A stretch of 64,000 nucleotides of DNA from an uncultured virus (IMG/VR IMGVR_UViG_3300010365_001574) (IMGVR_UViG_3300010365_001574); one strand, 5' to 3'. Numbered from the stretch's first letter, positions 8,076 through 53,631 are shown. Notes: generated from the letters alone by a model not told the origin. Made by a program: numbers and translations.

Positions 8076-8091
8076 AAAAATATAAATAAAA

Positions 8092-18433: not shown

Positions 18434-19138
18434 ATGTCTTTAGATAGAAGAAAAACCACAGAACAATTTATAAAAGAGGCCAAAAATAAATGGGGTGATA
18501 AATATGATTATAGTATAACAATTTATACAACTAGAAAAAACAAAATAAAAGTAATATATGATGGTATAGTATATGAACAATTACCAAGTAATCATATGAT
18601 ATATGCACCAGAAAAATTATCTATTCCTATGACTACAGATTATTTTATAAAAAAGTCATTAGAATTAAATGGCAATAGATATGATTACAATAAAGTTAAC
18701 ATTATATCAAGTGGTAAAAAAGTTTTAATTACTTGTAATAAAGAAGGACATGGTGATTTTTTACAAACACCACATAGTCATATTAATGGTAAAGGTTGTC
18801 CAAAATGTAGAGAATCAAAAGGTAATAAAATAATAAGAAGTATTTTAGATAAAAGTAATATAAAATACATACAAGAGTATAAATTCAGTGATTGTAAAAA
18901 TAAACAAGAACTACCATTTGATTTCTATATTGAGTCTATAAATACTTGTATTGAATTTGATGGTGTACAACACTATAAACCAGTTTCTATATTTGGAGGT
19001 AATGAAAAGTATGAGATAACTAAATTTAATGATAATATTAAGAATTTATATTGTAATAAGAATAATATAAATTTAATAAGAATAAGTTATAAGGAAATAA
19101 ATAAAATAAAGAATATTATAGAAACTCTGATAAAATAA
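18434..19138 (+). CDS. Homing endonuclease, Vsr-like PD-(D/E)XK; paralog of 121-825
   Basis: LPFDFYI..CIEFDGVQHY..KNLYC..LIRISY. Confidence 0.8.
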   Translation: MSLDRRKTTEQFIKEAKNKWGDKYDYSITIYTTRKNKIKVIYDGIVYEQLPSNHMIYAPEKLSIPMTTDYFIKKSLELNGNRYDYNKVNIISSGKKVLITCNKEGHGDFLQTPHSHINGKGCPKCRESKGNKIIRSILDKSNIKYIQEYKFSDCKNKQELPFDFYIESINTCIEFDGVQHYKPVSIFGGNEKYEITKFNDNIKNLYCNKNNINLIRISYKEINKIKNIIETLIK

Positions 19139-22635: not shown

Positions 22636-23037
22636 TTAATTTACTATTATTTCATTTGAGTTACCATAATCAACTCTTACTTGACCATCATTCATACCAG
22701 GTTGTTTTTTAACAAATTTTGCTTTACAATAAACAACAGTTGCCTTATCTTCATCTTTAGCCTTACTATTTTTCTTAGCAATCTCTGCAACTTTTTTAAT
22801 TACTTCTGGTGTAGGTAGTTTTTCTCTAACTACAATTAACATATGACTACCTGGAACACCTTTTGTATGCATCCAAATATCATCTGGATCAGACATATTA
22901 AATGTTAAATGGTCATTAGATTTTGCATCACGACCCAAATATACAATAAATCCATCAATATCCAAAGTTTTTATGTTTGGAAATTTATTTTTACTCTCAT
23001 TAAATGCACTAAAACCCAATATTCTATTTTCTTCCAT
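22636..23037 (-). CDS. NFACT-R (DUF814, RqcH/FbpA-type) RNA-binding domain protein
   Basis: GRDAKSNDHLTF..DIWMHTKGVPGSH..NSKAK..VKK..GQV; own ATG with CTS-like leader MEENRILGFSAFNES. Confidence 0.8.
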   Translation of the reverse strand: MEENRILGFSAFNESKNKFPNIKTLDIDGFIVYLGRDAKSNDHLTFNMSDPDDIWMHTKGVPGSHMLIVVREKLPTPEVIKKVAEIAKKNSKAKDEDKATVVYCKAKFVKKQPGMNDGQVRVDYGNSNEIIVN

Positions 23038-23898
23038 GATTATATTCTTTTTTATAAATGTAGTGAGTATATTATTAATATCTTCTAAGTAAGATATTCT
23101 TAGTAACTTTTTATTATTATCCATTATCCATTTATTCTTTACTTCATCATTTATTCTAACTCTTTTATATTGTTCAACACCACCAAAAAAGTCAACAGGT
23201 TGAAAATGTTGTATTCCATCAAACTCTATAAAAATGTCAGTATTTTCTAAATGGAAATCAAACTTATAATTTATATTATTTATATTTACTTTATACTGAT
23301 GTATATATTTAATATTATATTGATCCAAAATTCTGTATATTTCTCTTTCACCCTTTGATAACAAACATCTTGGACATCCTGTTTTAAGATGAATTATATA
23401 ATTAGGTTTTGTCTCCCATATATAATTACATCTTAAACACTTATGTTTAAGTATTTTATTACTACCTAAATATTCATCAGATATTAATACTATATCTTTT
23501 GGTAATAAACTTTTGTATTTATCAATAGAAAATAATTTACCTGAACATGAAGGACAACCAATTAAAGAATTTTTAACAACCTTTGGACTACTTTTAAATA
23601 CATATCCACATTTTAGACATTTATGTTTTAATTTAGTTCTAACATTAATATATGGTTCCAATAATTCAATTGATTTATCATTTATAGAATTTATATAATT
23701 ATCTTTATTTTTTTCACAATTACACTTTAATGAATTGAATGCTTTTGGTGGTTTACTTAAAACTTTACCACATTTCTTACACTTAAATGATGTTGGTGTC
23801 TTAGAGTTAATATATTCACCAACTCTTATAAAATTAGAATCCTTTATTCTTAAATCAAAATCTTCACCTGTTATTAATTTTCCTAATTTACTATACAT
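22636..23898 (-). CDS. Zn-ribbon/Vsr-like homing endonuclease reading in frame into the NFACT-R gene
   Basis: CxxC repeats, KFDFHL..IEFDGIQHF..LLRISY, then no stop before the NFACT-R ATG. Confidence 0.7.
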   Translation of the reverse strand: MYSKLGKLITGEDFDLRIKDSNFIRVGEYINSKTPTSFKCKKCGKVLSKPPKAFNSLKCNCEKNKDNYINSINDKSIELLEPYINVRTKLKHKCLKCGYVFKSSPKVVKNSLIGCPSCSGKLFSIDKYKSLLPKDIVLISDEYLGSNKILKHKCLRCNYIWETKPNYIIHLKTGCPRCLLSKGEREIYRILDQYNIKYIHQYKVNINNINYKFDFHLENTDIFIEFDGIQHFQPVDFFGGVEQYKRVRINDEVKNKWIMDNNKKLLRISYLEDINNILTTFIKKNIIMEENRILGFSAFNESKNKFPNIKTLDIDGFIVYLGRDAKSNDHLTFNMSDPDDIWMHTKGVPGSHMLIVVREKLPTPEVIKKVAEIAKKNSKAKDEDKATVVYCKAKFVKKQPGMNDGQVRVDYGNSNEIIVN

Positions 23899-23923
23899 AA
23901 CATATATATTAATTATATAAAAC

Positions 23924-23953
23924 AAAAAAAGACTCCTAAAAGGAGTCTTTTTT
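23924..23953 (-). terminator. Terminator after the major capsid gene
   Basis: aaaaaaaGACTCCTaaaAGGAGTCtttttt. Confidence 0.85.
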
Positions 23954-23968
23954 ATAATTAATTAATGA

Positions 23969-25633
23969 TTAGTTAAGTAATTGTGCAGCATCTGTAACAG
24001 TAATTGTCATAAATTGCTTTTGAGGATACCATCCCACTTCTGCAACAGCATATCTTGATCTTAGTAACATTCTTGGAGCAAATGTAGCCTCAGAGATAAC
24101 TGATATAGACTGAGCCATAAGATAAGGCACGAAAATAATTCCTGGTTGGTCAGGGTTATTTTTTCTACCTAATACGATTCTGTTATCGTTATATCTCATA
24201 TATGGATCAACATAGATAGAGATGTCTCCGATAGAACCAACTGGGTAAAGTTGACCTTGAGAGTTCATTTTAGATTTAACTGGGTTAATTGTGTAACCAG
24301 CAATATCTTGTAATGCAGCAGCTAAACCTCCATTTGTAATTAAGTATTGAGCTGGTCCAACACGTCCCTCAGTTGCAATATAGTTAGATGCGTGAGCAAT
24401 TCTAGTTATAAGTTTTCTTTGGATAGCGTGAGTAGTCTCTCCACCTGGTGCAGCAGAATTATATGCATAAGAAGTATTCAAGTCAAATAATGATGTACCA
24501 TCTTGTTTTTTAGGTGCACCTGCAGCATTTAAAGATCCCATTTCAAAGATTTTAGCAACAATTTGTTTAGAGATTGTTTGAGACAATTCATTAACAAGGA
24601 TTGATTCCATTTTTTGAACAATATCCATACCTGTGTTAGCTTTGATGTCTTCAATTTCTGTTCTTCTTAAAGCTGAAGATATTTCAATAGTACCAACTGC
24701 AATAGTTTTAGAAGAGATTTTTGGTCCAATAACACCTGAATAAGAGTTATCATCTTCTAATCTTGACATTGGGTAAGCACCAGCAGCAGCAGTAGTAGGA
24801 GTAGCAGCCCAGTTTGCAGAGAAACCAGGAATGTGATCTTCTAAAGCAGAGATTAATTCAATAGTATCAACTACAACAGCAGTAGTACCAATAAAGGCAA
24901 TTTGACTTGTCATAGATGAAGAAGAATCAAAAGTATTTTTAGTTTGTTCAAATCCAAATGTATTAACTTGACCAGCAGTATTTGCTTGTCTGTATGCTTT
25001 AAACATTGGTAAACCATCAATTCTTGAGAATCCTAAAAATTCAACAATACCTTCTTTATCATTTACAAATGCACTTTCATCATAAGTAATTGCAGTTGAG
25101 TTAAAAATATCAACAAATACTCTACCACCAACTAAACCACCTTGAGTTTGTTTAATTACACCACCAGCAGTTGCTCCAGCTAAATTTGCAGAAGCAGTTG
25201 GTCCAACATTACATTTGAAAACTTGTGGTCTTTCATTTGAATCTAAATTAACATCATCATATTGAAAATCAATATAAAGTAAGTCTAATTTTGGACCTGG
25301 AGTTGGTTTTACAGCAACTAAATCTAAACCAATTGTTTGAGCAGCAATTTTCATAGCTACTGGTAATAAGTTTTGACCAACATCACCTGAACCAGCTTGA
25401 CCAGTCCATCCTGTATTAGCTAAAGTTGTTCCTGCAGGACCACCTAATACTGGGTTAACTACAGCTCCCATACCTGCTACGTTTGTAGCATTAACGTATG
25501 CGTTTTCATTGATAGAGTGGAACTCAGCATATTCTGACATCCATTCAAGTCTATCACCTGAAACTCCCATATTTTCCAATACTGGAGACCATTTCTTCAT
25601 GGCTTTTTGATTATCTATTCTAATTTGTGACAT
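23969..25633 (-). CDS. gp23: Major capsid protein (T4 gp23-like)
   Basis: KKWSPVLE N-terminus; ILVNELSQTISKQI; IYVDPY; FVPY..TFAPRMLLRSRYAV. Confidence 0.92.
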   Translation of the reverse strand: MSQIRIDNQKAMKKWSPVLENMGVSGDRLEWMSEYAEFHSINENAYVNATNVAGMGAVVNPVLGGPAGTTLANTGWTGQAGSGDVGQNLLPVAMKIAAQTIGLDLVAVKPTPGPKLDLLYIDFQYDDVNLDSNERPQVFKCNVGPTASANLAGATAGGVIKQTQGGLVGGRVFVDIFNSTAITYDESAFVNDKEGIVEFLGFSRIDGLPMFKAYRQANTAGQVNTFGFEQTKNTFDSSSSMTSQIAFIGTTAVVVDTIELISALEDHIPGFSANWAATPTTAAAGAYPMSRLEDDNSYSGVIGPKISSKTIAVGTIEISSALRRTEIEDIKANTGMDIVQKMESILVNELSQTISKQIVAKIFEMGSLNAAGAPKKQDGTSLFDLNTSYAYNSAAPGGETTHAIQRKLITRIAHASNYIATEGRVGPAQYLITNGGLAAALQDIAGYTINPVKSKMNSQGQLYPVGSIGDISIYVDPYMRYNDNRIVLGRKNNPDQPGIIFVPYLMAQSISVISEATFAPRMLLRSRYAVAEVGWYPQKQFMTITVTDAAQLLN

Positions 25634-25728: not shown

Positions 25729-27948
25729 TTATACTCTTCTAAATCTTTCCATAATCATAGAAACTTCATTATCAGATAGTTTATCCTCTTGGATTAAACC
25801 TTCATGAGCAACAAGTTTTTTAGTTACAGTTTCATTAGTTTTGATATTTCTAGTTCCCCAGAAATGCTCAATTTGATTTTCAGTTCTTAAAACTTCTTCT
25901 GGATATAATCTAGCTTGTGATAAGACAGATTTTTTAGCAGATTCGTTTAAAGTACCCCAGATTGGCTTAATGTTATCAGGCATCAATCTGATTACTCTTT
26001 CTTCAAGAGTTTCGTTTTTAGTTGCTAATGACTCTGAGATCAAAGTAAGAACTTCTTTCTGTGTAAAATAACTACTCTCGTTTATGTGTAGTTTAACAGT
26101 ATCTTGTTCTTCATCTGATAGAGCATAAAAACTATCAACTTGTGATTTGTTTAAGAACTTTAAAAAGTTCAAATCACTGCTTTCAGAAACTTTACGTTTT
26201 TTAGCTTCTTCAATTAATTTATTAATAGATTCAGAAAGTTCAGAGTCATCTTGACCTGCAAATTCTTCTTCTTGTTCTTCTTCTTCTTGACCTTCTGGTG
26301 CAAATTCTTCAGCTTCATGTCCTTCACCTTCTGGTGCAAATTCCTCACCTTCATGTCCTTCACCTTCATGTTCTTCACCACCAGCAAATTGAGCAGCATC
26401 ATGTGCAAACTCTTCAGCTTCGTGTGCAAACTCTTCAGCTTCTTGTGCAAAGTCACCGTGTCCTTCTTCTCCAGCAAATTCTTCTTCTTGTTCTTCCTCT
26501 TCTTGAGATTCAAAACCAGCATCTTCAATAGATGGGAATTGACCCTCTTCTTCACCAAATCCTTCATTTAATTTACCAAATGCATTAAGTTTTTCAACTA
26601 TCATTCCTTGGTAAGAAATAGATTTGTCTAAGTTCTCTGCAACATATTCAGAGTAAGCAATATTATCATCTAAATGTTCAGCAATGTATTCAGAGTAAGC
26701 AATGTTACCTTCAACATGTTCTGCTAAGTATTCTGAGTAAGCAATTGAGTTATCAACTGACTCAGCAATGTATTCAGAGTAAGCAATGTTTTTGTCTAAG
26801 TTTTCAGCAATGTATTCAGAGTAAGCAATATTCTTATCTAAGTTTTCTGCTAAGTATTCTGAATATTCAATGTTTTTGTCTAAGTTCTCAGCTAAGTATT
26901 CTGAGTAAGAAATGTTTTTGTCTAAGTTTTCAGCAATATATTCTGAGTAATTGATATTTTTATCCAAGTTTTCAGCTAAATACTCTGAATACTCAATATT
27001 TTTATCTAAATTCTCAGCTAAGTATTCTGAATAGTTAATAGCTTTTTCTAAGTTCTCAGCTAAGTAGTCATTGTGTTTAGCCAATTTTGTAGTAGTTTCT
27101 TTTAATGATTTGTTTTCATTAACTACCACTTGGATTTTGTCAGCCAAATAATCTAAATATTTAGCAACTTGTGAGTTAGTTCCATTTAACTCTTCATAAT
27201 ACTCAAGTAATTGCTCTAATTTCTTAGCTGGCATATTACCTTTAGTAATTGCATTATTTACTACTTTTTTAGTAGATGCAATCTCATTAACTAAATACTT
27301 TGAATAGTCACTTAGTTGTTGTTTTGTTACAAAGTCATTGTTGTTCATTTTGAATAATTCGTTCATTTTGGACTCGTCAGACATCTCATATATCCTAAAG
27401 TTATTTTTTTCAATTTGTCCATCAGTACAATAACCTAAAGATTCATTCAATACTTTTACACTCATTCTTGCAGATGCAAATCCTGGATCAGCAACAATGT
27501 CATATGTAAAAAGTTTTTTCAATGATACTGAACCATCAGATTCAGTAATACCTGCAGCTCTTGAAGATACAAAAACAGGACATCCATCATTAACTAATGC
27601 CTTTGCTTCTTTTCCCCAATATGTACTTAACAATTTGATTTCTCCTTCAACTGTGTTCTTTTCAGAAACATATTCAGCTTTGGTGATGATGTGAGATGCT
27701 CTTGACAATGAGGTATCAAAAACATCCGGGTGATCAAACTCACCAAAAACAGCACCTAAGCTGTTCATTCTTTCATTCAATTCTCCTAACGCAGGTAGGA
27801 ACTTTTCAGCAGTGTATATTCTCTCATTACGATTTTTAACACCAAACTCTGTAAAAGTACCATTAAGGATAAAATCCTGGTTACCTGTAGAAGCACTCTC
27901 TCTTACAAGAGAATTTGTTGAATTTTCTACTATTAAAACTGGTTTCAT
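25729..27948 (-). CDS. gp21: Prohead protease fused to scaffold/core protein (T4 gp21 + gp22-like)
   Basis: NRNERIY, GEFDHP, VSSRAAG, TYDIVADPGF catalytic motifs, then coiled-coil, tandem repeats and an acidic tract. Confidence 0.88.
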   Translation of the reverse strand: MKPVLIVENSTNSLVRESASTGNQDFILNGTFTEFGVKNRNERIYTAEKFLPALGELNERMNSLGAVFGEFDHPDVFDTSLSRASHIITKAEYVSEKNTVEGEIKLLSTYWGKEAKALVNDGCPVFVSSRAAGITESDGSVSLKKLFTYDIVADPGFASARMSVKVLNESLGYCTDGQIEKNNFRIYEMSDESKMNELFKMNNNDFVTKQQLSDYSKYLVNEIASTKKVVNNAITKGNMPAKKLEQLLEYYEELNGTNSQVAKYLDYLADKIQVVVNENKSLKETTTKLAKHNDYLAENLEKAINYSEYLAENLDKNIEYSEYLAENLDKNINYSEYIAENLDKNISYSEYLAENLDKNIEYSEYLAENLDKNIAYSEYIAENLDKNIAYSEYIAESVDNSIAYSEYLAEHVEGNIAYSEYIAEHLDDNIAYSEYVAENLDKSISYQGMIVEKLNAFGKLNEGFGEEEGQFPSIEDAGFESQEEEEQEEEFAGEEGHGDFAQEAEEFAHEAEEFAHDAAQFAGGEEHEGEGHEGEEFAPEGEGHEAEEFAPEGQEEEEQEEEFAGQDDSELSESINKLIEEAKKRKVSESSDLNFLKFLNKSQVDSFYALSDEEQDTVKLHINESSYFTQKEVLTLISESLATKNETLEERVIRLMPDNIKPIWGTLNESAKKSVLSQARLYPEEVLRTENQIEHFWGTRNIKTNETVTKKLVAHEGLIQEDKLSDNEVSMIMERFRRV
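26614..27075 (-). repeat. 11 tandem 42-nt coding repeats (YSEY[LIV]AENLDKNIx)
   Basis: 462 nt = 11 x 42; units read directly from the translation. Confidence 0.9.
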
Positions 27949-28014
27949 TTAAAATAATTATTTTTTGTAGTTCTGTGGTATATATAAACATTGTTAATTA
28001 TCTATTTTTGAGAA

Positions 28015-28029
28015 GTGGATTTTTTATAG
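28015..28029 (-). promoter_or_regulatory. 15-bp element upstream of the protease/scaffold promoter (copy 2)
   Basis: Identical to 25713-25727, with similar spacing to TATATA. Confidence 0.55.
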
Positions 28030-28123
28030 TATCTTTGTAAAGTCTTATGAAATAAGGTAGTTTTAATTTTGGTAAAAAGGGGGATTGATATTTTAATAAA
28101 TACTTAAAAATAAGTGGTTTTTT

Positions 28124-28513
28124 ATGATCCTTTCAAGAGAGATAAATATTAAAATAATTGAGTCAAATTACAACTATTATGATTATTTAGGATATGATGT
28201 ATATATAGGAGAAGAAATTGTGATACCAGTTGATCTGTTACCAAAAGGTTCTCATTATAAAATTAAATGTAAATGTGATGTTTGTGGGGTTGAGAAAGAT
28301 GTAATCTATAAGAATTACCTTAAATATGATAATGTTTGGGGAGAGTATTATTGTAGAAAGTGTTCAGAGAGTAAGAGGAAGGAAACACTTAGAAAAAACT
28401 TTGGAGTAGATTATCCTATTCAGAATAAAGGAGTTTTAGATAAGATGAAAAAAACATTAATTAAAAAATATGGAGTGGATAATATCTCCAAAAAAATAAA
28501 AAAGAATGAATAA
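28124..28513 (+). CDS. Zn-ribbon plus KYGVDN-repeat DNA-binding module of endonuclease type, no nuclease domain
   Basis: CKCDVCG, CRKC, KNFGVDYP, KKYGVDNISK. Confidence 0.6.
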   Translation: MILSREINIKIIESNYNYYDYLGYDVYIGEEIVIPVDLLPKGSHYKIKCKCDVCGVEKDVIYKNYLKYDNVWGEYYCRKCSESKRKETLRKNFGVDYPIQNKGVLDKMKKTLIKKYGVDNISKKIKKNE

Positions 28514-30029
28514 ATTAAAAGAAGATAGTATCTATGATGGTACTATAGAATTCTCAAATAGTGGAAATGCATCCATTAGAATAGAGGATAAAAGTATTTT
28601 TATATTTAAAAAAAATACATTGAATGCACTTAACTCAGATAAAGTTAAAGTTAAGATTATTATTAAGAATAATAAAGTAGAAGCGGAAGTAATAGAAGTA
28701 TTAGAAAGATTCCGTACACAATTTGTTGGTAAAGTACACTTAAACAAAGACCTAACCTTTGTAATACCAGACAGTCAAAAAATTCCAGTAGATTTTTATA
28801 TTAAAGGAAACCATGATGCAAAGAATGACCAAAAAGTTTTGGTTGAGTTTTCAAACTGGGAACCTGGTTCTAAATCACCTAAAGGTAAAATTATTGAAAT
28901 CTTAGGAGAATCTGGAGATAACAATACCGAAATGAACTCAATTATGTATGAATATGGATTACCTAACAGTTTCCCTCTAATGGTTGAAGCTGATGCAGAA
29001 TTAATACCTTTTGAAATATCAGAAGAAGAAATTGAAAAAAGAAGAGATATGAGAGCAATTACAACCTTTACCATTGACCCTGTTGATGCTAAAGATTTTG
29101 ATGATGCTCTTTCAGTAAATATTTTAGATAATGATACTGTTGAAGTTGGTATTCATATTGCCGATGTATCTCACTATGTTAAAGAAGGAACTGATTTAGA
29201 TGATGAAGCAATTAGTAGAGCAACATCTGTTTACTTAGTTGATAGATGTGTACCAATGTTACCTGAGAGATTGAGTAATGGTGTATGTTCATTAAGACCT
29301 AATGAAGATAAACTTTGTTTCTCAGTTGTAGTTACTTTAAATAAAGAAGGAGAAGTATTGAATAAATGGTTTGGTAAAACTATTATACATTCAGATAGAA
29401 GATACTCTTATGAAGAAGCTCAAGAAATAATTGAAGGTAAAGATGGAGATTTCAAAACTGAAATACTTCTATTAGATACAACTGCTAAAAAAATGAGAAA
29501 GCAAAGAATAGAAGATGGTTCTATTGAAATGGGTGGAATTGAAGTAAGATTTCAATTGGATCCAACTACAAAGAAACCAACTGGTGTTTATTTCAAAACT
29601 CAGAAAGATGCAAATAAACTTATTGAAGAATATATGTTACTTGCTAATAAATTAGTTGCTAAAGAATTAAAGACTAAAATTAAGTTTTGTGTAAATAGAT
29701 CTCATGGTTTACCAAGTATAGAAAAAATAATGGAAATAAAAAATCTATGTGATAAATTAGGATATAATTTTGATACAAATGAAGATAATATAAAATCAAG
29801 TATTAATAGTCTGTTAAAAGATGTTAAAGGAAATCCTGAGGAAAATCTAATTAATACTTTAATAGTTAGAAGTCAACAAAAAGCATATTACACAACTGAT
29901 AATGTTGGACACTATGGACTTGGATTTGAGGACTATTGCCACTTTACAAGTTGTATCAGAAGGTATGCTGATATATTAGTGCACAGACTATTGACATTAT
30001 CATTAGACAATGGTGGTTATACAAAATAA
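28506..30029 (+). CDS. rnr: Ribonuclease R, N-terminal part (CSD + RNB)
   Basis: TIDPVDAKDFDDALS catalytic motif, VGIHIADVS, PMLPERLS, HFTSCIRRYAD; ends before the S1 domain. Confidence 0.92.
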   Translation: MNKLKEDSIYDGTIEFSNSGNASIRIEDKSIFIFKKNTLNALNSDKVKVKIIIKNNKVEAEVIEVLERFRTQFVGKVHLNKDLTFVIPDSQKIPVDFYIKGNHDAKNDQKVLVEFSNWEPGSKSPKGKIIEILGESGDNNTEMNSIMYEYGLPNSFPLMVEADAELIPFEISEEEIEKRRDMRAITTFTIDPVDAKDFDDALSVNILDNDTVEVGIHIADVSHYVKEGTDLDDEAISRATSVYLVDRCVPMLPERLSNGVCSLRPNEDKLCFSVVVTLNKEGEVLNKWFGKTIIHSDRRYSYEEAQEIIEGKDGDFKTEILLLDTTAKKMRKQRIEDGSIEMGGIEVRFQLDPTTKKPTGVYFKTQKDANKLIEEYMLLANKLVAKELKTKIKFCVNRSHGLPSIEKIMEIKNLCDKLGYNFDTNEDNIKSSINSLLKDVKGNPEENLINTLIVRSQQKAYYTTDNVGHYGLGFEDYCHFTSCIRRYADILVHRLLTLSLDNGGYTK

Positions 30030-30956
30030 CTTATCTTCTATAACTTCATCATATCTTATTATTAAAAGTTGAATATTATTATTTTTACAATATTCAACTT
30101 TTATTTTATCTTTTATCCTTTGATTTATTAAAGTATTCATACCACCAAAATGTTCTATTGGTTCATAATGTTGAATACCATTATATTCTATACATAGATT
30201 ATATTTAGGTAGATAAAAATCATATCTCAGTTCTTTGATATTTTTACAATCACTAAAAACATATTCTCTCTTATATTCAATATTATTATCATCCAAATAT
30301 TTTGATATTAATTTTTCTCCAATTGATTCCTTACATATTGAACATCCTTGTTTTCTATTAGTATGATGTTCAGGACTAATTTCAAATACTCCGTGTTTTT
30401 TACATATAATTTTTACTTTCATCAAACTATTTTTATATTCTGTTACTAGTGAATAGTCATATTTATCACCATGTATATCCTTACATCTTTGTAAAAATGT
30501 ATTTAATCCCATTCTTCTGTTATCCAATCTACATTTCATACAACCTTGACCACTTAGATGTGCTGATGGTCTTTGTAAAAATACACCATGTTCTTTACAA
30601 ATTATTTTAATTTTATGTGTGGTGTTTTTATATTCAACCATAGAATAATCATATTTATCATTATGTTTTTCTGAACATTTTATTAAAAAGTCAAATACTA
30701 TATTATTAAATATCTCTTTATTATATTTTATTTTATCTTCTATTTTATTATATTTTTCTCTATTAATTCCACATTTAGTACATCCATATTTACTACTAAG
30801 ATGATTACCAGGTTTTTGTTCAAAATTACCATGTGTTGGACAAATTATAATTACCTTAATATCATTGTTAATATAATTAACTTTTGAATAGTCATACTTA
30901 TCACCATATTTTATTTTTGATTTTTCTATAAATTCTTCTGTTGTTAATTTCTTCAT
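30003..30956 (-). CDS. Homing endonuclease, CxxHG repeats plus Vsr-like domain
   Basis: IICKEHGVF repeats; LRYDFYLP..IEYNGIQHY. Confidence 0.8.
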   Translation of the reverse strand: MKKLTTEEFIEKSKIKYGDKYDYSKVNYINNDIKVIIICPTHGNFEQKPGNHLSSKYGCTKCGINREKYNKIEDKIKYNKEIFNNIVFDFLIKCSEKHNDKYDYSMVEYKNTTHKIKIICKEHGVFLQRPSAHLSGQGCMKCRLDNRRMGLNTFLQRCKDIHGDKYDYSLVTEYKNSLMKVKIICKKHGVFEISPEHHTNRKQGCSICKESIGEKLISKYLDDNNIEYKREYVFSDCKNIKELRYDFYLPKYNLCIEYNGIQHYEPIEHFGGMNTLINQRIKDKIKVEYCKNNNIQLLIIRYDEVIEDKLFCITTIV

Positions 30957-30958
30957 GA

Positions 30959-31108
30959 TTATTTTTCTAATTTTTCTCTTATAATTTCAGAAACTTTAAC
31001 CACTCTTCCTTCTTTTACACTTTTATTTATTGCAAGGTCTACAAGTTCTTGGTATAATTCTTTTTTAATTCTAATTGTAACTGATCTATCCTTATTGTCT
31101 TTTGTCAT
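30959..31108 (-). CDS. 49-aa RHH-like protein (not in ORF track)
   Basis: MTKDNKDRSVTIRIKKELYQELVDLAINKSVKEGRVVKVSEIIREKLEK. Confidence 0.7.
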   Translation of the reverse strand: MTKDNKDRSVTIRIKKELYQELVDLAINKSVKEGRVVKVSEIIREKLEK

Positions 31109-31122
31109 ATTATTTTATTTAT

Positions 31123-31174
31123 TTTTTGTCTTACATTATATATTAAAACTTTATCTCTTCCTTTCATATAATTA
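31123..31174. repeat. 52-bp direct repeat, copy 1
   Basis: tttttgtcttacattatatattaaaactttatctcttcctttcatataatta, identical at 32809-32860. Confidence 0.9.
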
Positions 31175-31239
31175 TTATGAAAAATAATTAGGTGGTAATA
31201 TTTATTTATACTACTTTTACAAAAATAAATTAAAAATAT

Positions 31240-31743
31240 ATGAGAAAATTATTATTAGGAGCTCTACTACTATTGAGCATGGTAAGTTTTGCACAAACAA
31301 AGATTATTTATTCAAAAGATGTAATGACTGATAAAGAATCGGTTAGTATTTCTGATGTATTGATGTGTAGTGAAGATGGTAAAAAAGGATTTATTGTAAT
31401 GGTTTCATTAAATTTGAAAGATGGTATAGTAAATTACAATGGGTTGATTGTAAAATCTGCTTATGTTGGTGGGTGTCATGAAAATGATACCTTAATTTTA
31501 TTATTTGATGATGATACTAAAGTAACACTTTCTATGTGGAACAAATTCAATTGTGATGGTAGTAGTTATTTTGATTTTTATAAAAAAGAATTTGAATCAT
31601 TCTCAACTAAAAAAGTTAAAGCAATTAGGTTGTCAAATGGAAGAACATATGATAGTTACACCTATGTATTAAAACCATCTGAACAAACTTATTTTATTGA
31701 TGTAGCCGCATTGATTAAGGCTAATGTATATTCAACAAAATAA
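31240..31743 (+). CDS. Secreted protein with Bacteroidota-type signal peptide
   Basis: MRKLLLGALLLLSMVSFA-Q cleavage pattern. Confidence 0.75.
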   Translation: MRKLLLGALLLLSMVSFAQTKIIYSKDVMTDKESVSISDVLMCSEDGKKGFIVMVSLNLKDGIVNYNGLIVKSAYVGGCHENDTLILLFDDDTKVTLSMWNKFNCDGSSYFDFYKKEFESFSTKKVKAIRLSNGRTYDSYTYVLKPSEQTYFIDVAALIKANVYSTK

Positions 31744-31746
31744 AAT

Positions 31747-31777
31747 AAAAAAAGAGACTTATAAAGTCTCTTTTTTT
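31747..31777. terminator. Bidirectional terminator
   Basis: aaaaaaaGAGACTTataAAGTCTCttttttt; near-identical to 2492-2521. Confidence 0.8.
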
Positions 31778-32649
31778 ATTTTATTCAATATATTTTCATC
31801 ATATTTAATTGATATTAATTTAATATTATTACTCTCACAATAATCCTTCTTTATTCTATCCTTTATTATTTGTTTTTTTAATTCTTTAATACCACCAAAA
31901 ACATCGACTTCTTCATAATGTTGTCTACCATTATACTCAATACACATATCATAATCAGGTAAATAAAAATCAAATGGCAGTCTTCTTTTATATTTACAAT
32001 CATCAAATGTCTTTTGACCAATATATTGTATATTATTAGATATAAGATAATTTCTTATTATTTTCTCTCCTTTACTTTCTCTACACACTGGACAACCCTG
32101 ACCTAATAAATGTAAATCAATCTTTTGAGTAAAAAGACCATGTTCTTTACAAATAATATCAACCTTCTCTTTATTATTGTTATATTCTTTTACTAGTTTA
32201 TAATCATATTTATTATTATGAATAACATTTGACTTTCTAATGAAATTATCCAAACCCAACTTTCTACAATCATTACATCCTCTTTTTTGATATAAGTGGT
32301 TTTTAATACTGGTTGTAAAAACACCATGTTCTTTACAAATAACATCTATTTTATCCTTTACACTTTTATAATCAGAAGAAACTATTGAGTAATCATATTT
32401 ACCATTATGTAATTGAAAACATCTTTCTAATAAAATATCAATACCAATTTTCTTATCATCAATTCTACATTTATCACACCCTTGACCATTCAAATGGTTG
32501 TTTGGATTTATAGAATACTTTCCATGTTTTTGACAAATTATATCTACATTGGTTCTCATATTCTCATAAATTGTTATTGAATAATTATATTTATCCTTAT
32601 GTTTAAGTAAACATTTATCAATAAATATCTCTGTTGTTAATTTTTTCAC
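31759..32649 (-). CDS. Homing endonuclease, paralog of 30003-30956
   Basis: GTG start, MKKLTTE; ICKEHG repeats; LPFDFYLP..IEYNGRQHY. Confidence 0.8.
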   Translation of the reverse strand: MKKLTTEIFIDKCLLKHKDKYNYSITIYENMRTNVDIICQKHGKYSINPNNHLNGQGCDKCRIDDKKIGIDILLERCFQLHNGKYDYSIVSSDYKSVKDKIDVICKEHGVFTTSIKNHLYQKRGCNDCRKLGLDNFIRKSNVIHNNKYDYKLVKEYNNNKEKVDIICKEHGLFTQKIDLHLLGQGCPVCRESKGEKIIRNYLISNNIQYIGQKTFDDCKYKRRLPFDFYLPDYDMCIEYNGRQHYEEVDVFGGIKELKKQIIKDRIKKDYCESNNIKLISIKYDENILNKIKKETL

Positions 32650-32650
32650 A

Positions 32651-32794
32651 TTATTTTACTAATTTTTCTCTTATTATATCTGATACTTTAATTATTTTAT
32701 TTTCTATAACTGACTTATCAATTGCCTCTTTAACTATTTTATCATAAACTTCCTGTTCTATTCTTATTGTAATAGATCTACCTTTTTTAATCAT
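32651..32794 (-). CDS. 47-aa RHH-like protein (not in ORF track), paralog of 30959-31108
   Basis: MIKKGRSITIRIEQEVYDKIVKEAIDKSVIENKIIKVSDIIREKLVK. Confidence 0.7.
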   Translation of the reverse strand: MIKKGRSITIRIEQEVYDKIVKEAIDKSVIENKIIKVSDIIREKLVK

Positions 32795-32808
32795 TTTTGT
32801 ATTTATTA

Positions 32809-32860
32809 TTTTTGTCTTACATTATATATTAAAACTTTATCTCTTCCTTTCATATAATTA
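32809..32860. repeat. 52-bp direct repeat, copy 2
   Basis: Identical to 31123-31174; ends 2 nt before the ATG of the rnr C-terminal part. Confidence 0.9.
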
Positions 32861-32862
32861 GT

Positions 32863-33222
32863 ATGAAAATTGATAGAAATAAAATTAATGAAATGTGTAA
32901 ACACATTTCAAGTAGAGAAGTATTAGCAAAAAAAGCAGAACGTGATTCCATACGTTATAAACAAATTGAATACTTAGAAGATAAAATTGGACAAGTATTT
33001 GATGGAATTGTATCAGGAGTAACCGATTGGGGTATGTATGTTGAACTTATTGAAAGTAAATGTGAAGGTATGGTTAGATATAACAATAACTACACAGTTG
33101 ATACAGATAATTATATTGTATTTCCTAAAATGGGAGGTTCAATAAGATTAGGTGATGAAGTTAAAGTAACAGTTAAAGCAATTGACTTAGACAGAAAACA
33201 AATAGACTTTGAGATATTCTAA
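32863..33222 (+). CDS. rnr: Ribonuclease R, C-terminal part (end of RNB + S1 domain)
   Basis: CKHISSREVLAKKAERDSIRYKQIEYL..FDGIVSGVTDWGMYVEL..CEGMV..LGDEVKV..QIDF. Confidence 0.9.
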   Translation: MKIDRNKINEMCKHISSREVLAKKAERDSIRYKQIEYLEDKIGQVFDGIVSGVTDWGMYVELIESKCEGMVRYNNNYTVDTDNYIVFPKMGGSIRLGDEVKVTVKAIDLDRKQIDFEIF

Positions 33223-33644
33223 TGGAATTAAATGTTAAACTAAATAATAATACTTTAGACCAGTATGATAAAGCACTTTCCACTTATAATGAGTGGAAAT
33301 CTTTTTATAGGGATATTAAACTATCTACCTTACTTGAAGGTAAGAGAGTTCAGTTTGATATTGATAATATACAAAAGATTGGAATGGTTCATGATTTTGT
33401 AACTCTTGAGAATCCTGGTAAATTACAAACAATGGCCTTTAGTATAAGTGGTATGACTTTCATTATAAAAGATAATAATATTGAAAAGTTAACATTAGAA
33501 GCAGAATTTTTAGAAACTGATTGTGGAAAAAAATTAAAAGAACTTTATGATGCAGGTATAGAACTTGAAGTCAGACAAGTATTCACTGATAGAAATGTTT
33601 CATTCACAATAGACTTACCAGAAACTAAAAATCCTTTCAATTGA
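33222..33644 (+). CDS. Degenerate prohead-protease-like protein with RDIKLSTLL motif
   Basis: FLETDCGKKLKELYDAGIELEV resembles LLSTYWGKEAKALVNDGCPVFV of 25729-27948; catalytic His and Ser motifs absent. Confidence 0.55.
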   Translation: MELNVKLNNNTLDQYDKALSTYNEWKSFYRDIKLSTLLEGKRVQFDIDNIQKIGMVHDFVTLENPGKLQTMAFSISGMTFIIKDNNIEKLTLEAEFLETDCGKKLKELYDAGIELEVRQVFTDRNVSFTIDLPETKNPFN

Positions 33645-33653
33645 AAGGATTTT
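33627..33653. terminator. Bidirectional terminator
   Basis: aaaaaTCCTTTCAATTGAAAGGAtttt. Confidence 0.7.
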
Positions 33654-33660
33654 ATTTTTA

Positions 33661-35415
33661 CTAGAACTCAAACTCGCCTCCACCCTCTGGAGCAGGAGGT
33701 GCTTCTGGTGCTGCTTGAGGTGCTACTTGACCACCACCTTGTGCTGGTGCTTCTGGTGTTGCTTGAGGAGCTGCTTGTCCACCACCAGGCATTTCACCAC
33801 TTTCACCGGAGCCACCAAATCCTCCACCACCTCCACCACCTTCTGATGGAGCACCAGGTTCACCAGTAGCACCTGCTGCTTGATTAGCAACATCCATTGC
33901 CCAGTATTTAGCATTCTCAGCTTTTTCTTCTGGAGTAAGTTTGAATACATTATCCATAATCCATTCAATGTGAAAGTATGGTTTCTCACCATTCATAACA
34001 CCAAGTAAAGTACCAACTATACCTGCTTTCTTTTCTAAATTGTTTATCTTTTTCCATTCTTCAAATACTTGATTTGTAAAGAATGTAATATCAACAGCAT
34101 TTGTAAAAAACTCATCATCCTTTAACTCAGGAAACTCAATTAACATTTGTAATCTTAATGGTTTAACAATTAATTCTTTAAAGTTAGATCTTAATCTACT
34201 AATAAAGTTATGGAACTTAATCTCATCTCTTGTCATTTCAGCAGCATCAGTAACTAAGTTACCACCACCATTATCACTTTCAAATCTTGACATTGGTATT
34301 TTAGATGCTCTCTTTAATGCTTTAAAGAACCAATCCAACATTGTATCATCATTTAAGTTATGACCTTGTGGAGATTCTAATGTCATATTTGGAGTACCTG
34401 CATCTCCCTCAGGAAACCAGATTTGTTTGTTATAAGGTAAGTGTTTAGAACCATTAATAGTTAAAGTTCCCAATGAGTCATCCCATTCTACTTCTTCTGA
34501 ATAATCATGTATTAATTGTCCTATTTGTTCTTCTGCTCTTTGTCTTGACATACCTTTAATTGGAATAGTAAACTTCTGATAAATAGTTGCATTAATAATA
34601 TTAAACATTATTCTTGTTTGTTGTAATATTTTTAATTGATTGTAAGGTTTAATCAAACCCTCTACATAAGATGTCTCTGAAAATTCATTTTGAGTTGAAT
34701 ATGAAACATAAACTATCTGTGAATCTAAAAATATTCTTCTTAATTGTGGATCCTCAGGAAACTGAATCCATAAGTGACCAATTGAAGGTTCATAAGCAGG
34801 AACTAAAGTTTCTGGTCTTAATCTATTGAAACTAATAATATTCTTCTTTTTATCATCAAATATAATCTCAAGTGCAACATAACCATCAACTAAAAAGTCT
34901 TTCATCATATTCCAAGCAGTAATGTTGTCAGAGAATCCAAACTTATTATAAATAGATTCAAAGTACTCTTGATACTTATCTTGTATCTCTGTTGAATATT
35001 CTATAGGTAAAGCCACTGGTGAACAGAAATCTCTCTCATCATTATAAACTATACACTCATCAGCAATTGAGCTCACAAAGTCTCTAATCTCATCTTTGAT
35101 AGAGTATTCTCTTAAAATTCTTCTCTTATCAGCATAAGCTTTGTCTAAATAAGGTATTGATTTTCTGTTTAATACAGATGCTACAGCTCGTTGCGAGAAG
35201 AAGTCATACATTGAATTTCCACGAGCAGCATATGGATCCTCATTAATACCAATACCCACTTGATTTCTAATAATCATATCATCATAGTTCATTCCATATG
35301 ATGATAAAGTTCTTAATATCCTATTAAATAGTCCTTTATTTTCTACTGCAGATTGTCCTGCAGCACCAAAGTTGGCAGTATTGCTATTAGTGTCGAAATT
35401 ATTGTAACTACTCAT
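33661..35415 (-). CDS. gp20: Portal protein (T4 gp20-like) with Gly/Pro/Ala-rich tail
   Basis: FLVDG, LIKPYNQL, ASKIPMSRF, EMTRDEIKFHNFISRLRSNF. Confidence 0.9.
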   Translation of the reverse strand: MSSYNNFDTNSNTANFGAAGQSAVENKGLFNRILRTLSSYGMNYDDMIIRNQVGIGINEDPYAARGNSMYDFFSQRAVASVLNRKSIPYLDKAYADKRRILREYSIKDEIRDFVSSIADECIVYNDERDFCSPVALPIEYSTEIQDKYQEYFESIYNKFGFSDNITAWNMMKDFLVDGYVALEIIFDDKKKNIISFNRLRPETLVPAYEPSIGHLWIQFPEDPQLRRIFLDSQIVYVSYSTQNEFSETSYVEGLIKPYNQLKILQQTRIMFNIINATIYQKFTIPIKGMSRQRAEEQIGQLIHDYSEEVEWDDSLGTLTINGSKHLPYNKQIWFPEGDAGTPNMTLESPQGHNLNDDTMLDWFFKALKRASKIPMSRFESDNGGGNLVTDAAEMTRDEIKFHNFISRLRSNFKELIVKPLRLQMLIEFPELKDDEFFTNAVDITFFTNQVFEEWKKINNLEKKAGIVGTLLGVMNGEKPYFHIEWIMDNVFKLTPEEKAENAKYWAMDVANQAAGATGEPGAPSEGGGGGGGFGGSGESGEMPGGGQAAPQATPEAPAQGGGQVAPQAAPEAPPAPEGGGEFEF

Positions 35416-35530: not shown

Positions 35531-36250
35531 ATGAATGAAATATATATCTATGCATTGAAAGATCCTGAGAATAATGAGATTAAATATATTGGAAAAACAA
35601 ATAATATTAAAAGAAGATATAATAATCATTTACAAGAGGTCAATAAAGGTATAAATACCAAAAAAGTAAATTGGATAAGAAAACTAAAAGAAAATAATAC
35701 TAAACCAATTTTAGAAGTTTTAGAAATATGTTGTGATATAAATTGGCAAGATAGGGAAATGTATTGGATTGATATAATAAATCCAAAATGTAATCAAACT
35801 AAAGGTGGAGGAGGTCAAATAACAACTAATTCAGACTATATAAAGAAAATATCAACTAGTGTCTTACAATATAATCTATATGGAGATTTGATAAATGAGT
35901 TTGAGTCATTAAATGAAGCCAGTAGAAATACTGGAATAGCAACACCAAATATAAGTAGAGCATGTAATGGTATTCTAAAACATGCAGGATTTTTTATTTG
36001 GAAATTTAAAGATATAGAGATAGTTAATAATAATTCTAAATTAAGTAGAATTAAAAATAAAAAAAGAGTTATACAAATTGATAAAAGTGGAAATATTATA
36101 TCAGAGTATGCATCTATAAGAGATGCAGCAACCATTAATAACTTTAATAGAAAAGCTATCTATAATTGTTGTCTTAATAACATAACTAATAGTTATAGTA
36201 CATCAAGTGGATATATATGGAAATATATAGATGATATAATTTATATATAA
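35531..36250 (+). CDS. GIY-YIG homing endonuclease with NUMOD1 domains
   Basis: YIYALKDP..KYIGKT..RYNNH; VLQYNLYG..FESLNEASR..GFFIWKF. Confidence 0.85.
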   Translation: MNEIYIYALKDPENNEIKYIGKTNNIKRRYNNHLQEVNKGINTKKVNWIRKLKENNTKPILEVLEICCDINWQDREMYWIDIINPKCNQTKGGGGQITTNSDYIKKISTSVLQYNLYGDLINEFESLNEASRNTGIATPNISRACNGILKHAGFFIWKFKDIEIVNNNSKLSRIKNKKRVIQIDKSGNIISEYASIRDAATINNFNRKAIYNCCLNNITNSYSTSSGYIWKYIDDIIYI

Positions 36251-40480: not shown

Positions 40481-41389
40481 TTACAAATCATTATTAGTAT
40501 TCCTATTCTGTATTCCTCTTGTTCCAGGATTATCATTTCTTGCATTAGATTGTTCTCTTGCTCTTAATATATTATTAAACCACCTTGTTCTTTTTGGTTG
40601 TAAAAAGTAATCAGCTTGATTATAATAACTTGATTGAGTAGAACCTGGTTGGTTAAAGTAATCAGAGAAACCACCATCAATTGAAAATCCATTCATATCT
40701 GATTGTCCTGTTCCTTTTGAATATCCTGGCATATCAATTCTATCTTTTCTAAATGCAGGATAATAAGTTTGAACTTCAAAAGAAACTTTTAACTTAACCA
40801 TGTTATCACTAGAAAGATTTTTTTCTCTTGATATTTCTATACCATTTGTATCAGGCATCAAAATAACAGCATCTATATTCATAAAGTTGTGTTCAAAATA
40901 CATAAACTTATAAATCCATAAAGTGTCCATAACTGATTGACTACACTTAAATATATCTAACTCACTTGCTAATAATATTTCCAAATCATAAGTTACTGAA
41001 ACTGGAACAGATCTAACTCTTCCAATTAATTTTTTAATCTCAACCTCATTTTCAACAACTGTTCTTAACCAAACATTTGGATTTGCATACTCATCAGCTC
41101 TGATGTTAAATCCAGTCATTGTTACATGACCTCTTGGTATCATATCAGTATTTAATTCAACATATCTACCATTACCTTCTGAATCACCAGAAACTATATC
41201 ATCAACAAATGAATCTAATAAAAATCTCTCATCACCTGTCATTGAATAGTAGAAAGGTACATTCACATATTTATCACCTGATGAAAATCTATTAATCCAC
41301 TTTACTTGTCCTTCTAATGTATCTAATACGCAAATGGTTAGATCACGAAAGAAGACATCATCCATATTGTATCTCTCACCTATTGACAT
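40481..41389 (-). CDS. gp15: Tail sheath stabiliser/terminator (T4 gp15-like)
   Basis: VPFYY..RFL..IPR..SVPVSVTYDLEI..F.V.TY pattern. Confidence 0.55.
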   Translation of the reverse strand: MSIGERYNMDDVFFRDLTICVLDTLEGQVKWINRFSSGDKYVNVPFYYSMTGDERFLLDSFVDDIVSGDSEGNGRYVELNTDMIPRGHVTMTGFNIRADEYANPNVWLRTVVENEVEIKKLIGRVRSVPVSVTYDLEILLASELDIFKCSQSVMDTLWIYKFMYFEHNFMNIDAVILMPDTNGIEISREKNLSSDNMVKLKVSFEVQTYYPAFRKDRIDMPGYSKGTGQSDMNGFSIDGGFSDYFNQPGSTQSSYYNQADYFLQPKRTRWFNNILRAREQSNARNDNPGTRGIQNRNTNNDL

Positions 41390-42294
41390 AATCTATTATT
41401 TATTTTTTTAAAATCAGACTCCCAGATAGAGACTATTTTATAACCTAGTGATTTTAAGCATTCCTCTCTCTCAATTGTTTTTTTATACAATTCACCATAT
41501 TTAATACCATTAACTTTATTTATATCATCTCCTTTATATATATTAGGATTACCATGCCAAAAATCACCATTAAACTCATATATTATATTTTCATCTAAAT
41601 TAATACCATCTACATAAAACTTATCTATCTTGTATTGTCTATAATCTTTATGTATACCAAAACTATCTAACCAAATATTTTCCAATATACCACCATTTCT
41701 ATTACACTTTGAACAACCTCTTCCATTTAAGTGTGAATTTGGTGTCATTGTAAAATCACCATGTTCTTTACAAACTATTGTTACTTTTGTGTTTGAGTCT
41801 AAGTATTTTAGTTTTGAATAATCATATTTACTATTATGCAATATATCTGATTTTTCAATAAATTGTAGAGTAGTTAGTTTACCTTTACCAATTGAATTAC
41901 ATTTTACACATCCACCTGTTTTAGAAGATAAGTGTTTTTCTGGGGTTTGTAAAAATTCTATATTGTGTTCTTTACATGTTATGATAACTTTTTCTTTCAT
42001 TTTAACATAATCAACTTTGGAATAATCATATTTAAAATTATGTTTAATATTGAATTTATTTAATAACTCATCTATATTGTTTTTTCTTAAATTGATCCTT
42101 TTAATTATACCACAAGTTGGACAACCACTTCTATAATGTACAGAAGGTAACTGATAAAAAATTCCATGTTCCAAACAATTTATTGAAATCAAAGACTTCT
42201 CACTAACATATTCGGTATTTGAATAGTCATATCTATTACCATGTTTTGATGTTGATTTTAAAATAAATTCTTGTGTTGTTAATCTTTTAGACAT
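41380..42294 (-). CDS. Homing endonuclease, CxEHG repeats plus Vsr-like domain; paralog of 11835-12734
   Basis: YVDG..YEFNGDFWHGNP..IWESD. Confidence 0.8.
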   Translation of the reverse strand: MSKRLTTQEFILKSTSKHGNRYDYSNTEYVSEKSLISINCLEHGIFYQLPSVHYRSGCPTCGIIKRINLRKNNIDELLNKFNIKHNFKYDYSKVDYVKMKEKVIITCKEHNIEFLQTPEKHLSSKTGGCVKCNSIGKGKLTTLQFIEKSDILHNSKYDYSKLKYLDSNTKVTIVCKEHGDFTMTPNSHLNGRGCSKCNRNGGILENIWLDSFGIHKDYRQYKIDKFYVDGINLDENIIYEFNGDFWHGNPNIYKGDDINKVNGIKYGELYKKTIEREECLKSLGYKIVSIWESDFKKINNRLCQ

Positions 42295-53618: not shown

Positions 53619-53631
53619 TTTTTTATTTTTT

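Follow-up and report, generated by a model that had tools for sequence, protein, structure and literature searches.

A phage RNase R gene carried as two genes with probable homing-endonuclease cassettes between them

A 64,000-nucleotide stretch of DNA from an uncultured virus (IMG/VR record IMGVR_UViG_3300010365_001574), referred to here as the window, carries its gene for RNase R (rnr) in two pieces. The reading favored here, with a probability of about 0.8, is that the rnr of a large uncultured phage exists as two genes with homing-endonuclease cassettes between them, that both halves are under selection, that their products would form a two-chain enzyme, and that the cassettes would have spread by homing.

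The upstream piece, or N-half, is an open reading frame (ORF) of 507 amino acids at 28506-30029 on the plus strand, with OB_RNB, CSD2 and RNB domains (Pfam RNB E 5e-103, CSD2 E 1.7e-27). Its RNB match spans profile positions 1-324 of 326, and the ORF stops 11 residues past the ...HRLL helix. The downstream piece, or S1-half, encodes 119 amino acids at 32863-33222 on the same strand and holds the last RNB helices (residues ~8-37) followed by an S1 domain (Pfam S1 E 1.7e-9). On TIGR02063, the 711-position model of RNase R, the N-half covers 64-580 with 531 bits and the S1-half 591-709 with 106 bits; the cut-off of 597.85 applies to a single protein, and neither ORF reaches it alone. Because these two matches are complementary, the two ORFs together read as one RNase R, with about ten model positions falling at the break. 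The RNase R domain set, comprising OB/CSD, RNB with its motif I aspartates and a C-terminal S1, is present across the two ORFs, and aspartates D191, D194, D197, D199 and D200 are invariant in 26 aligned sequences, N-halves and intact alleles together. An earlier sequence-only reading had placed rnr in two intact ORFs at these same positions, and the profile searches agree with it.

Between the halves lie an endonuclease gene, a small ribbon-helix-helix (RHH)-like gene and a 52-bp repeat, then an ORF for a secreted-type protein, and then a second endonuclease gene, RHH-like gene and copy of the repeat; every element that had been described is found at the locus. The ATG of the S1-half begins 2 nucleotides past the 52-bp repeat. 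Both endonuclease genes are antisense to rnr, as had been noted, and a bidirectional terminator-like hairpin with perfect 22-nucleotide arms (31739-31785) stands inside the insert, between the secreted-type ORF and the second endonuclease; terminator-like sites number 6, against 0.5 expected in shuffled sequence. The break falls six codons past the ...HRLL helix, in a linker that varies among intact alleles, and no rnr residue is lost. In split alleles the N-half continues for a few codons of insert sequence before its stop, leaving a tail of 5-11 residues past the native sequence.

Insertions of this kind can be removed from the product, by a group I or group II intron at the RNA level or by a split intein at the protein level as in fractured genes, and Vsr-like endonucleases of this family do occur in group I introns and between split inteins, according to excerpts from two studies (PMC2677866, PMC3239194). 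Such removal is nevertheless exceedingly improbable here. A cmscan search over 27500-34000 returns no Rfam intron family at E<=1 and only two chance-level matches to unrelated families, and Pfam detects no Hint or intein domain in either half. The tail of the N-half is 11 residues long, the S1-half starts directly with rnr sequence, and the insert holds genes on both strands together with a bidirectional terminator. The view of the sequence-only reading that the insert is not an intron is thus upheld by the searches and by the short tails alike.

A scan of viral contigs with the N-half yields 80 loci, the window's own record among them; the counts that follow refer to the other 79. The window's public match is a single 42.5-kb contig (G001, L011 and L098), which is not independent of it. 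In 76 of the 79 loci rnr is intact, with RNB and S1 in one frame of one open ORF. The RNB and S1 BLAST matches lie 7-43 nucleotides apart in these loci, and the ORF measures 624-639 amino acids in 74 of them, the remaining 2 being cut by the contig end. The gene is likewise intact in the nearest GenBank huge phages, LR745206 (634 kb), which is syntenic, and LR756502 (642 kb). The comparison with uninterrupted alleles that had been proposed at the outset thereby finds them in abundance.

Split genes are found in the other three loci (L012, L013 and L034). A second scan, with the RHH-like protein, gives 7 loci, all 7 in rnr beside the S1-half, and adds four contigs (L092-L095) whose rnr is only 55-56% identical to that of the window. 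Eight contigs, the window's own included, show the order N-half, endonuclease on the minus strand, small ORF on the minus strand, conserved spacer and S1-half, with the break at the same linker codon; the L012 contig stops before its S1-half. This is a fixed-site split, by an endonuclease gene, of a host gene that is otherwise one ORF. Because phages whose rnr genes share only 55-64% identity carry this cassette at one and the same codon, and because the RHH-like proteins of the window and L034 are 91% identical, the sequences support the identification of the cassette as a mobile endonuclease element. A literature search by title and abstract found no published split phage RNase R.

Both halves appear to be maintained. 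The ratio of nonsynonymous to synonymous divergence (dN/dS) was taken over pairs within the window, L012 and L013 and within L092, L093 and L095, which span dS values of 0.12-1.13. Among these close split alleles it is 0.06-0.15 for N-half codons 1-388, 0.04-0.12 for the remainder of the N-half, which forms part of a replaced tract discussed below, and 0.04-0.09 for the S1-half. Two of the adjoining endonuclease genes have decayed: in L013 the endonuclease is broken into pieces of 151 and 69 amino acids and the RHH-like gene is truncated, and in L095 the endonuclease ORF is without its N-terminal part and start. Both rnr halves are open in each of these contigs.

The insertion could have inactivated rnr and left recent pseudogenes that have not yet decayed. 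Outside the tract, each lineage is still 88-100% identical to its intact relatives, so that some transfers are recent, and the window allele has Cys at an otherwise invariant Pro. A dead gene is nonetheless quite unlikely, given dN/dS values of 0.04-0.15 in both halves at dS of up to ~1.1, the retention of RNB motifs in all 23 of the truncated protein clusters, and 7 N-halves and 7 S1-halves with neither stop nor frameshift next to endonuclease genes that have decayed.

Structure prediction bears on whether the halves meet. The predicted complex of N-half and S1-half scores 0.88, against 0.39 for the best control; of solved complexes 116 of 157 reach that mark, and of mismatched pairs 2 of 215. 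At least 92% of the contacts recur between runs, with a partner pLDDT (predicted local distance difference test) of at least 87. The predicted interface is formed mostly by S1-half residues 1-37, which pack on N-half residues 142-152, 236-246, 459-464 and 486-498. Structures of this fold have been solved with both parts in a single chain, so this pass may reflect likeness to them. Since the final RNB helices lie on the S1-half, the two polypeptides would reassemble without covalent joining.

The halves might instead act apart, the N-half as a truncated exoribonuclease and the S1-half as an independent RNA-binding protein; each has its own start and stop, and selection on each half alone does not show binding. 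This is unlikely, since the S1-half opens with the last RNB-fold helices, the very residues (1-37) that make most of the predicted contacts, since the break removes no residue, and since the complex prediction passes its controls, possibly through likeness to single-chain structures. The enzyme probably works as two chains. The two-chain RNase R proposed by the sequence-only reading gains support from purifying selection on both halves and from the control-passing predicted complex.

A replaced tract surrounds the insertion site. Measured in 60-nucleotide segments, the window rnr is 89-100% identical to its closest intact relatives, L016 and L018, up to codon 388, and 38-72% identical from codon 389 (29670) to the break. 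In the S1-half, identity to the same alleles is low over the first 31 codons (to 32955), where mismatches are dense, and is 77-100% from there to the end, where they are sparse. The left flank of the tract, of apparently foreign origin, thus occupies 29670-30029 on the plus strand (rnr codons 389-507), and the right flank 32863-32955 on the same strand (S1-half codons 1-31). L012 and L013 break from L016 at the same codon 389; L013 also regains identity past S1-half codon 31, as L034 does against L042, L012 being informative for the codon-389 break only. L034, compared with its own closest intact relative L042, is ~90% identical before the same codon and 43-78% inside the tract, and its G+C content at third codon positions is 0.36 in the tract against 0.20 upstream. 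Both boundaries lie directly after highly conserved stretches, ...LIEE.MLLANK and ...RDSI.YKQ; divergent phages would still share enough identity there to resolve recombination.

By its sequence pattern, the low-identity segment is a co-conversion tract, as expected of double-strand-break repair that copies an endonuclease gene with its flanks. A shift in sequence style near 29650, which had been noticed from codon usage, is borne out by the identity break at 29670. ATA makes up 6 of 10 Ile codons after 29670 and 11 of 35 before it, which are small numbers. The replaced segment would presumably resist cleavage. The protein clusters most like the window tract (at least 60% identity) comprise 24, of which 23 are truncated N-halves of 501-542 amino acids without S1 and 1 is intact; this shows, at the level of sequence, that tract type goes with split state. 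The S1-half opens with M-K-(I/S)-..., and an in-frame Met stands at that position in P0135 (629 amino acids), the sole intact allele of the same tract type. L013 also has a small second mosaic patch far from the cassette, at rnr codons ~193-233, with 73-80% nucleotide identity to the window against 93-100% around it.

The endonucleases belong to one family. Endonuclease 1 (30003-30956, minus strand, 317 amino acids; phrog_559 E 2e-74) has three CxxH...CxxC zinc-ribbon modules and a Vsr-like domain, and its 3' end overlaps the N-half stop by 27 nucleotides. Endonuclease 2 (31759-32649, minus strand, 296 amino acids; phrog_559 E 2e-71) is 46% identical to endonuclease 1 and 89% identical to the endonuclease of L012. 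The AlphaFold2 model of endonuclease 1 (pLDDT 88.5) shows three repeats with invariant CxxH...CxxC sets and a C-terminal domain. Residues 211-317 superpose on I-Bth0305I (3r3p_A) with Z 11.0 and a root-mean-square deviation of 2.6 Å over 90 of 97 aligned residues at 24% identity; Vsr (1cw0_A) is second best at Z 10.3, and Foldseek gives E 6e-3 for the Vsr-like fold. Residues D246, E257 and H263 are invariant and D283 nearly so among 29 endonuclease sequences; they are candidates for the composite Glu, Asp, His, Asp catalytic motif and for counterparts of D196, H213 and D222 of I-Bth0305I. Pfam assigns the N-terminal region to DUF723/DUF4379 treble-clef zinc ribbons and finds no NUMOD match there, PDB sequence searches with endonuclease 1 and its profile give 0 matches, and no NCBIfam family matches either endonuclease, either RHH-like gene or the secreted-type ORF. 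Because zinc ribbons stand where the EDxHD family is described as having a NUMOD/HTH region, the endonucleases are best placed in a zinc-ribbon branch of the Vsr-like homing endonucleases and do not count as proven EDxHD members.

At least 7997 related proteins are present in the protein collection, and several sources name them 'very-short-patch-repair endonuclease'. Clusters there reach 82-86% identity to endonuclease 1; viral contigs hold no close relative of it, the best other locus being 50% identical. Cassette endonucleases at the rnr site are 41-93% identical to one another, range from 296 to 432 amino acids and differ in repeat number. The only footprints of homing seen are the co-conversion tract and the same cassette in divergent backbones, and from these we infer homing and cleavage.

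Each endonuclease gene is preceded by a small gene. RHH-like gene 1 (30959-31108, minus strand, 49 amino acids) lies 2 nucleotides upstream of endonuclease 1 and is 59% identical to copy 2 (32651-32794, minus strand, 47 amino acids), which is in turn 98% identical to its counterpart in L012 and 91% to that in L034. It encodes the best-conserved protein of the cassette, since copy 2 keeps this 91% identity to L034 where the N-halves are 64% identical. The RHH_3 Pfam match (E 0.008, 16.6 bits) falls under the cut-off of 21.6. The model shows an extended N-terminus followed by two helices, and the top Foldseek rows are VapB, ParD, PrpA and MatP, which are RHH proteins, but all at E>=4. The small protein is probably RHH-like.

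The 52-bp repeat is exact at 31123-31174 and 32809-32860, giving 2 matches against 0 in 100 shuffles. It belongs to two copies of a control region, at 31123-31183 (52 bp exact, 61 bp at 98%), which ends in a vestigial ATGAAAA start, and at 32809-32869, which ends in the real start of the S1-half. Across contigs, 8 of 9 cassette copies share a conserved spacer from the RHH-like gene to the first codon of the S1-half, and a 29-nucleotide core of it is identical in 7. The exact repeat that had been described is therefore present, but it isn't merely a local duplication: because the spacer is conserved in 8 of 9 aligned copies, the repeat appears to be mainly two copies of a constrained control region and no fresh duplication. 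A role for the repeat as a dispersed promoter cassette was considered and rejected, as only two copies occur in the window. The control region may hold divergent expression signals for the RHH-endonuclease operon and the S1-half, and may serve as an RHH operator. In the promoter scan each repeat copy has a single TTAAAA-18-TATAAT site, a hit that does not count as evidence for a function. A literature search found no publication linking ribbon-helix-helix proteins to a free-standing homing endonuclease.

The gap also carries cargo. The secreted-type ORF (31240-31743, plus strand, 167 amino acids) has a signal-peptide-like N-terminus and no Pfam, PHROG or NCBIfam match; its 19 related clusters are all unnamed, and the nearest Atlas clusters are viral and Bacteroidota hypothetical proteins. 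In L012 a different ORF of 185 amino acids, for which no family was found, lies between N-half and endonuclease (7579-8136, plus strand) behind the same signal-peptide start. Because L012 has a different secreted-protein ORF there, the slot does carry exchangeable cargo, in line with the earlier suggestion that the module can carry a passenger gene. Such cargo may be co-transferred by homing.

The second cassette resembles that of L012 as a unit. The segment 31750-32885, which contains endonuclease 2, RHH-like gene 2 and the control region, is 91.7% identical to L012 over 1136 nucleotides, and 31181-31277 is 78% identical to L012 7499-7616. After control region 1 comes ATGAAAA, the S1-half start, and then homology to an L012-type N-half end and cargo leader. 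By this homology, 31176-31239 (plus strand) is a hybrid junction in which the S1-half start, with four codons and a stop, is joined to an L012-type left junction and cargo leader. The window thus looks like a first cassette to which an L012-type unit has been attached through a match of about 5 bases. In the mechanism proposed, the second unit (cargo ORF, endonuclease 2, RHH-like gene 2 and control region), which stands alone in L012, would have been joined behind the first cassette at a short GAAAA match between the S1-half start and the L012-type N-half end, producing a rare double occupancy.

Pro->Cys and the surrounding DNA bear on a candidate target. All 78 intact loci and all 97 longer clusters keep the Pro of the RNB motif HFTSPIRRY; the window has TGT (Cys) in its place at 29952-29954 on the plus strand. 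The substitution singled out by the sequence-only reading is therefore real and is confined to split alleles, but it isn't general to them: it occurs in 2 of 7 split loci (the window and L093) and 8 of 23 truncated clusters, and the close relatives L012/L013 and L092/L095 keep Pro. Pro->Cys requires two or three base changes; the Ser-Pro codon pair differs between the window and L012 at all six bases and between L093 and L095 at three. On a tree of 29 distinct tract sequences, built with this codon left out, the Cys label must change 6 times, and well-supported branches force at least 4 of these changes; its clustering does not exceed that of shuffled labels (90 of 500 shuffles as low). We infer the meaning of the change from sequence.

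Among 56 distinct intact alleles, the 45 nucleotides that encode LGF..Y.HFTSPIRR tie as the gene's most conserved segment. In all seven split alleles this segment departs from the consensus at 12-18 positions, against an intact median of 4; in an upstream control segment the split alleles depart from it at only 3-5. These counts fit the motif DNA as the target and the split alleles as immune. Four truncated N-halves (P0139, P0140, P0142 and P0144) have a 5-6-residue insertion directly before HFTSPIRRY, in the candidate target region. A wider proposal is that the DNA of the RNB motif (...LGF..Y.HFTSPIRR) is the endonuclease recognition site, that rival cassettes contending for the single rnr site are engaged in an arms race there, in which Pro->Cys is selected as immunity to cleavage, that the RHH-like protein acts as an antitoxin-like brake, and that the rnr gap is a general landing pad for cargo. 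This proposal is tentative, and doubtful as a whole; if it were true, a selfish element would be forcing adaptive change in the catalytic motif of an enzyme.

Several results weigh against one or another part of this account. In the tree of tract types a few intact alleles (P0135, L069 and P0145/6) are mixed among the split ones, and because they sit there, a single origin, multiple origins and precise loss are not distinguishable from that tree. Divergence of the split alleles at HFTSPIRRY falls inside the replaced tract and is expected from replacement alone, so that it is not an independent test of the target. The RHH assignment is weak, with Pfam under cut-off and Foldseek at E>=4. Sigma-70-type promoters are not enriched (32 sites against 34.9 in shuffles), and the RNA fold of the control region is not significant on either strand of either copy (z -0.03 to -1.21). 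Finally, the tandem junction is seen solely in the 42.5-kb record that matches the window.

This last point raises the question of whether the assembly is a chimera of two strains that coexisted, each with a single cassette. Close relatives do have single-cassette forms, and the tandem is known only from the window and the identical public record; an exact-match scan of metagenome contigs for the junction returns that same contig alone. Such a chimera is very unlikely. The join between control region 1 and the cargo leader lies in unique sequence outside the long repeat, where the two sides share about 5 bases, a structure that a repeat-induced misjoin would not create, which argues against assembly error. 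Two sequencing runs hold 98% of the sampled 31-mers of 29600-33300, though they may be the source sample. A further 18 runs hold 22-38% and 4 hold 7%, which is uninformative on habitat or arrangement.

The mechanism proposed for the split rests on a cassette unit, antisense to rnr, made of an RHH-like gene, a zinc-ribbon Vsr-like endonuclease of I-Bth0305I type and a control region of ~55 nucleotides that abuts the downstream rnr start codon. In a mixed infection the endonuclease would cut a cassette-free rnr near the insertion site. Repair would copy the cassette with ~360 bp of left flank and ~93 bp of right flank, and crossovers would resolve in the nearest conserved motifs (...LLANK and ...RDSI.YKQ). 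The RHH-like protein would repress its own operon from the control region.

The surroundings of the locus identify its carrier. The window is DNA of a large phage with T4-type capsid and portal genes, its ORF for a Gp23-type capsid protein lying at 23969-25633 and its T4-type portal at 33661-35415 (Pfam Portal_T4 E 1e-57); the host is probably a member of the Bacteroidota. A 129-amino-acid ORF (DUF7487, 28124-28513, plus strand) overlaps the rnr start by 8 nucleotides, and nearly all relatives conserve it 5' of rnr. Its PHROG matches are to the N-terminal portions of families annotated as homing endonucleases, and it may be a DNA-binding remnant that has been kept. A prohead-protease-like ORF (25729-27948, minus strand) contains an extended series of 13-residue repeats (YSEYLAENLDKNI-like) and an acidic segment rich in Glu and Gly, a layout that LR745206 shares. 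Between the prohead-protease-like gene and the DUF7487 ORF, LR745206 (L001 4811-5500, minus strand) has an ORF with an HNH-like end that is absent from the window and from most relatives. A tRNA and tmRNA scan of the window gives zero matches.

Other candidate mobile genes are present in the window. Four more whole zinc-ribbon/Vsr-like ORFs, at 121-825 (minus), 11835-12734 (plus), 18434-19138 (plus) and 41380-42294 (minus), are 36-44% identical to the rnr-site endonucleases, and none has an RHH-like ORF. A fifth copy (22636-23925, minus strand, 429 amino acids), also without an RHH-like ORF, has zinc ribbons and a Vsr-like domain in frame with a C-terminal NFACT-R (Pfam E 1e-12). Because an internal Met directly precedes the NFACT-R part, this ORF may be an endonuclease gene that has lost its stop ahead of an NFACT-R gene. 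A LAGLIDADG-like ORF (16330-17157, minus strand) adjoins a D12 adenine methyltransferase (15317-16324), and a GIY-YIG and NUMOD1 ORF (35531-36250, plus strand) adjoins the portal gene. In a thymidylate synthase ORF of 388 amino acids (52515-53681, minus strand), a 264-position Pfam match is stretched over residues 27-386, which suggests an insertion of ~100 residues.

The closest known case is nrdA/mobE of phage Aeh1, reportedly presented as genes-in-pieces by Friedrich et al. in 2007. There too, in a T4-type phage, a free-standing endonuclease gene splits an enzyme gene into two separately translated pieces, with no intron or intein, with its own start and stop for each piece, and with short new tails created by the insertion. 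The systems differ in the host gene, which is ribonucleotide reductase in Aeh1 and RNase R here, and in the endonuclease, which is HNH in mobE and Vsr-like and antisense to the host gene here. The rnr cassette further has an RHH-like partner and a conserved control region abutting the start codon of the second piece, its gap carries cargo and a second cassette, and the function of its pieces is predicted from sequence. The nrdA-a/mobE/nrdA-b arrangement of the Aeromonas phage, as excerpted from Crona et al. 2011 (PMC3045599), is that of a gene in pieces by insertion of a free-standing endonuclease.

Fractured genes, in which a split intein and a free-standing endonuclease occupy broken phage enzyme genes, are a second point of comparison (Dassa et al. 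2009, PMC2677866, in the sections available). They share with rnr a broken phage enzyme gene with a Vsr-like endonuclease gene between the pieces, and control elements that arrive with the endonuclease. The rnr break, in contrast, has no split-intein halves, its N-half tail being 5-11 residues and its S1-half starting native. The fractured-gene endonucleases, as those sections describe them, lie on the host-gene strand and often overlap the downstream piece, whereas those of rnr are antisense. I-Bth0305I is the prototype of the EDxHD (Vsr-like) family, to which the free-standing Hef enzymes of phages also belong (Taylor et al. 2011, PMC3239194, in part). As far as the excerpts of that paper go, the rnr endonucleases resemble I-Bth0305I and Hef in having a C-terminal Vsr-like fold (Z 11.0 to 3r3p_A), a multidomain build with an N-terminal DNA-binding region, and free-standing phage members. 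They differ in carrying three to five zinc-ribbon modules (DUF723/DUF4379) where I-Bth0305I has NUMOD and helix-turn-helix elements, and in giving no sequence-level PDB match.

A pairing of small gene and endonuclease is also described in moraphages of Bacteroidota, where a small CcdA/HicB-like gene and a PacI-like putative homing endonuclease form a module for which the authors propose regulation (PMC12619734, in the portions available). The likeness lies in an antitoxin-type small gene paired with a putative homing endonuclease in large Bacteroidota phages. The nuclease is PacI-like there and Vsr-like here, and those portions describe neither a split host gene nor a fixed target site.

Judged by sequence, the split of rnr is well supported as genetics. 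RNase R would join the short list of enzymes shown or argued to survive splitting by a selfish endonuclease gene. Taken together, the intact alleles, the seven further split contigs, the endonucleases in decay and the double occupancy let the life cycle of the element be read from sequence. The recurrent Pro->Cys change at a catalytic motif, seen in split alleles only, is directly testable. The locus defines the point at which RNase R would divide into two chains; it offers the 45 most conserved nucleotides of the gene as a candidate target for zinc-ribbon Vsr-like homing endonucleases, a branch that has been little studied; and it includes a small RHH-like partner that may regulate a homing endonuclease.

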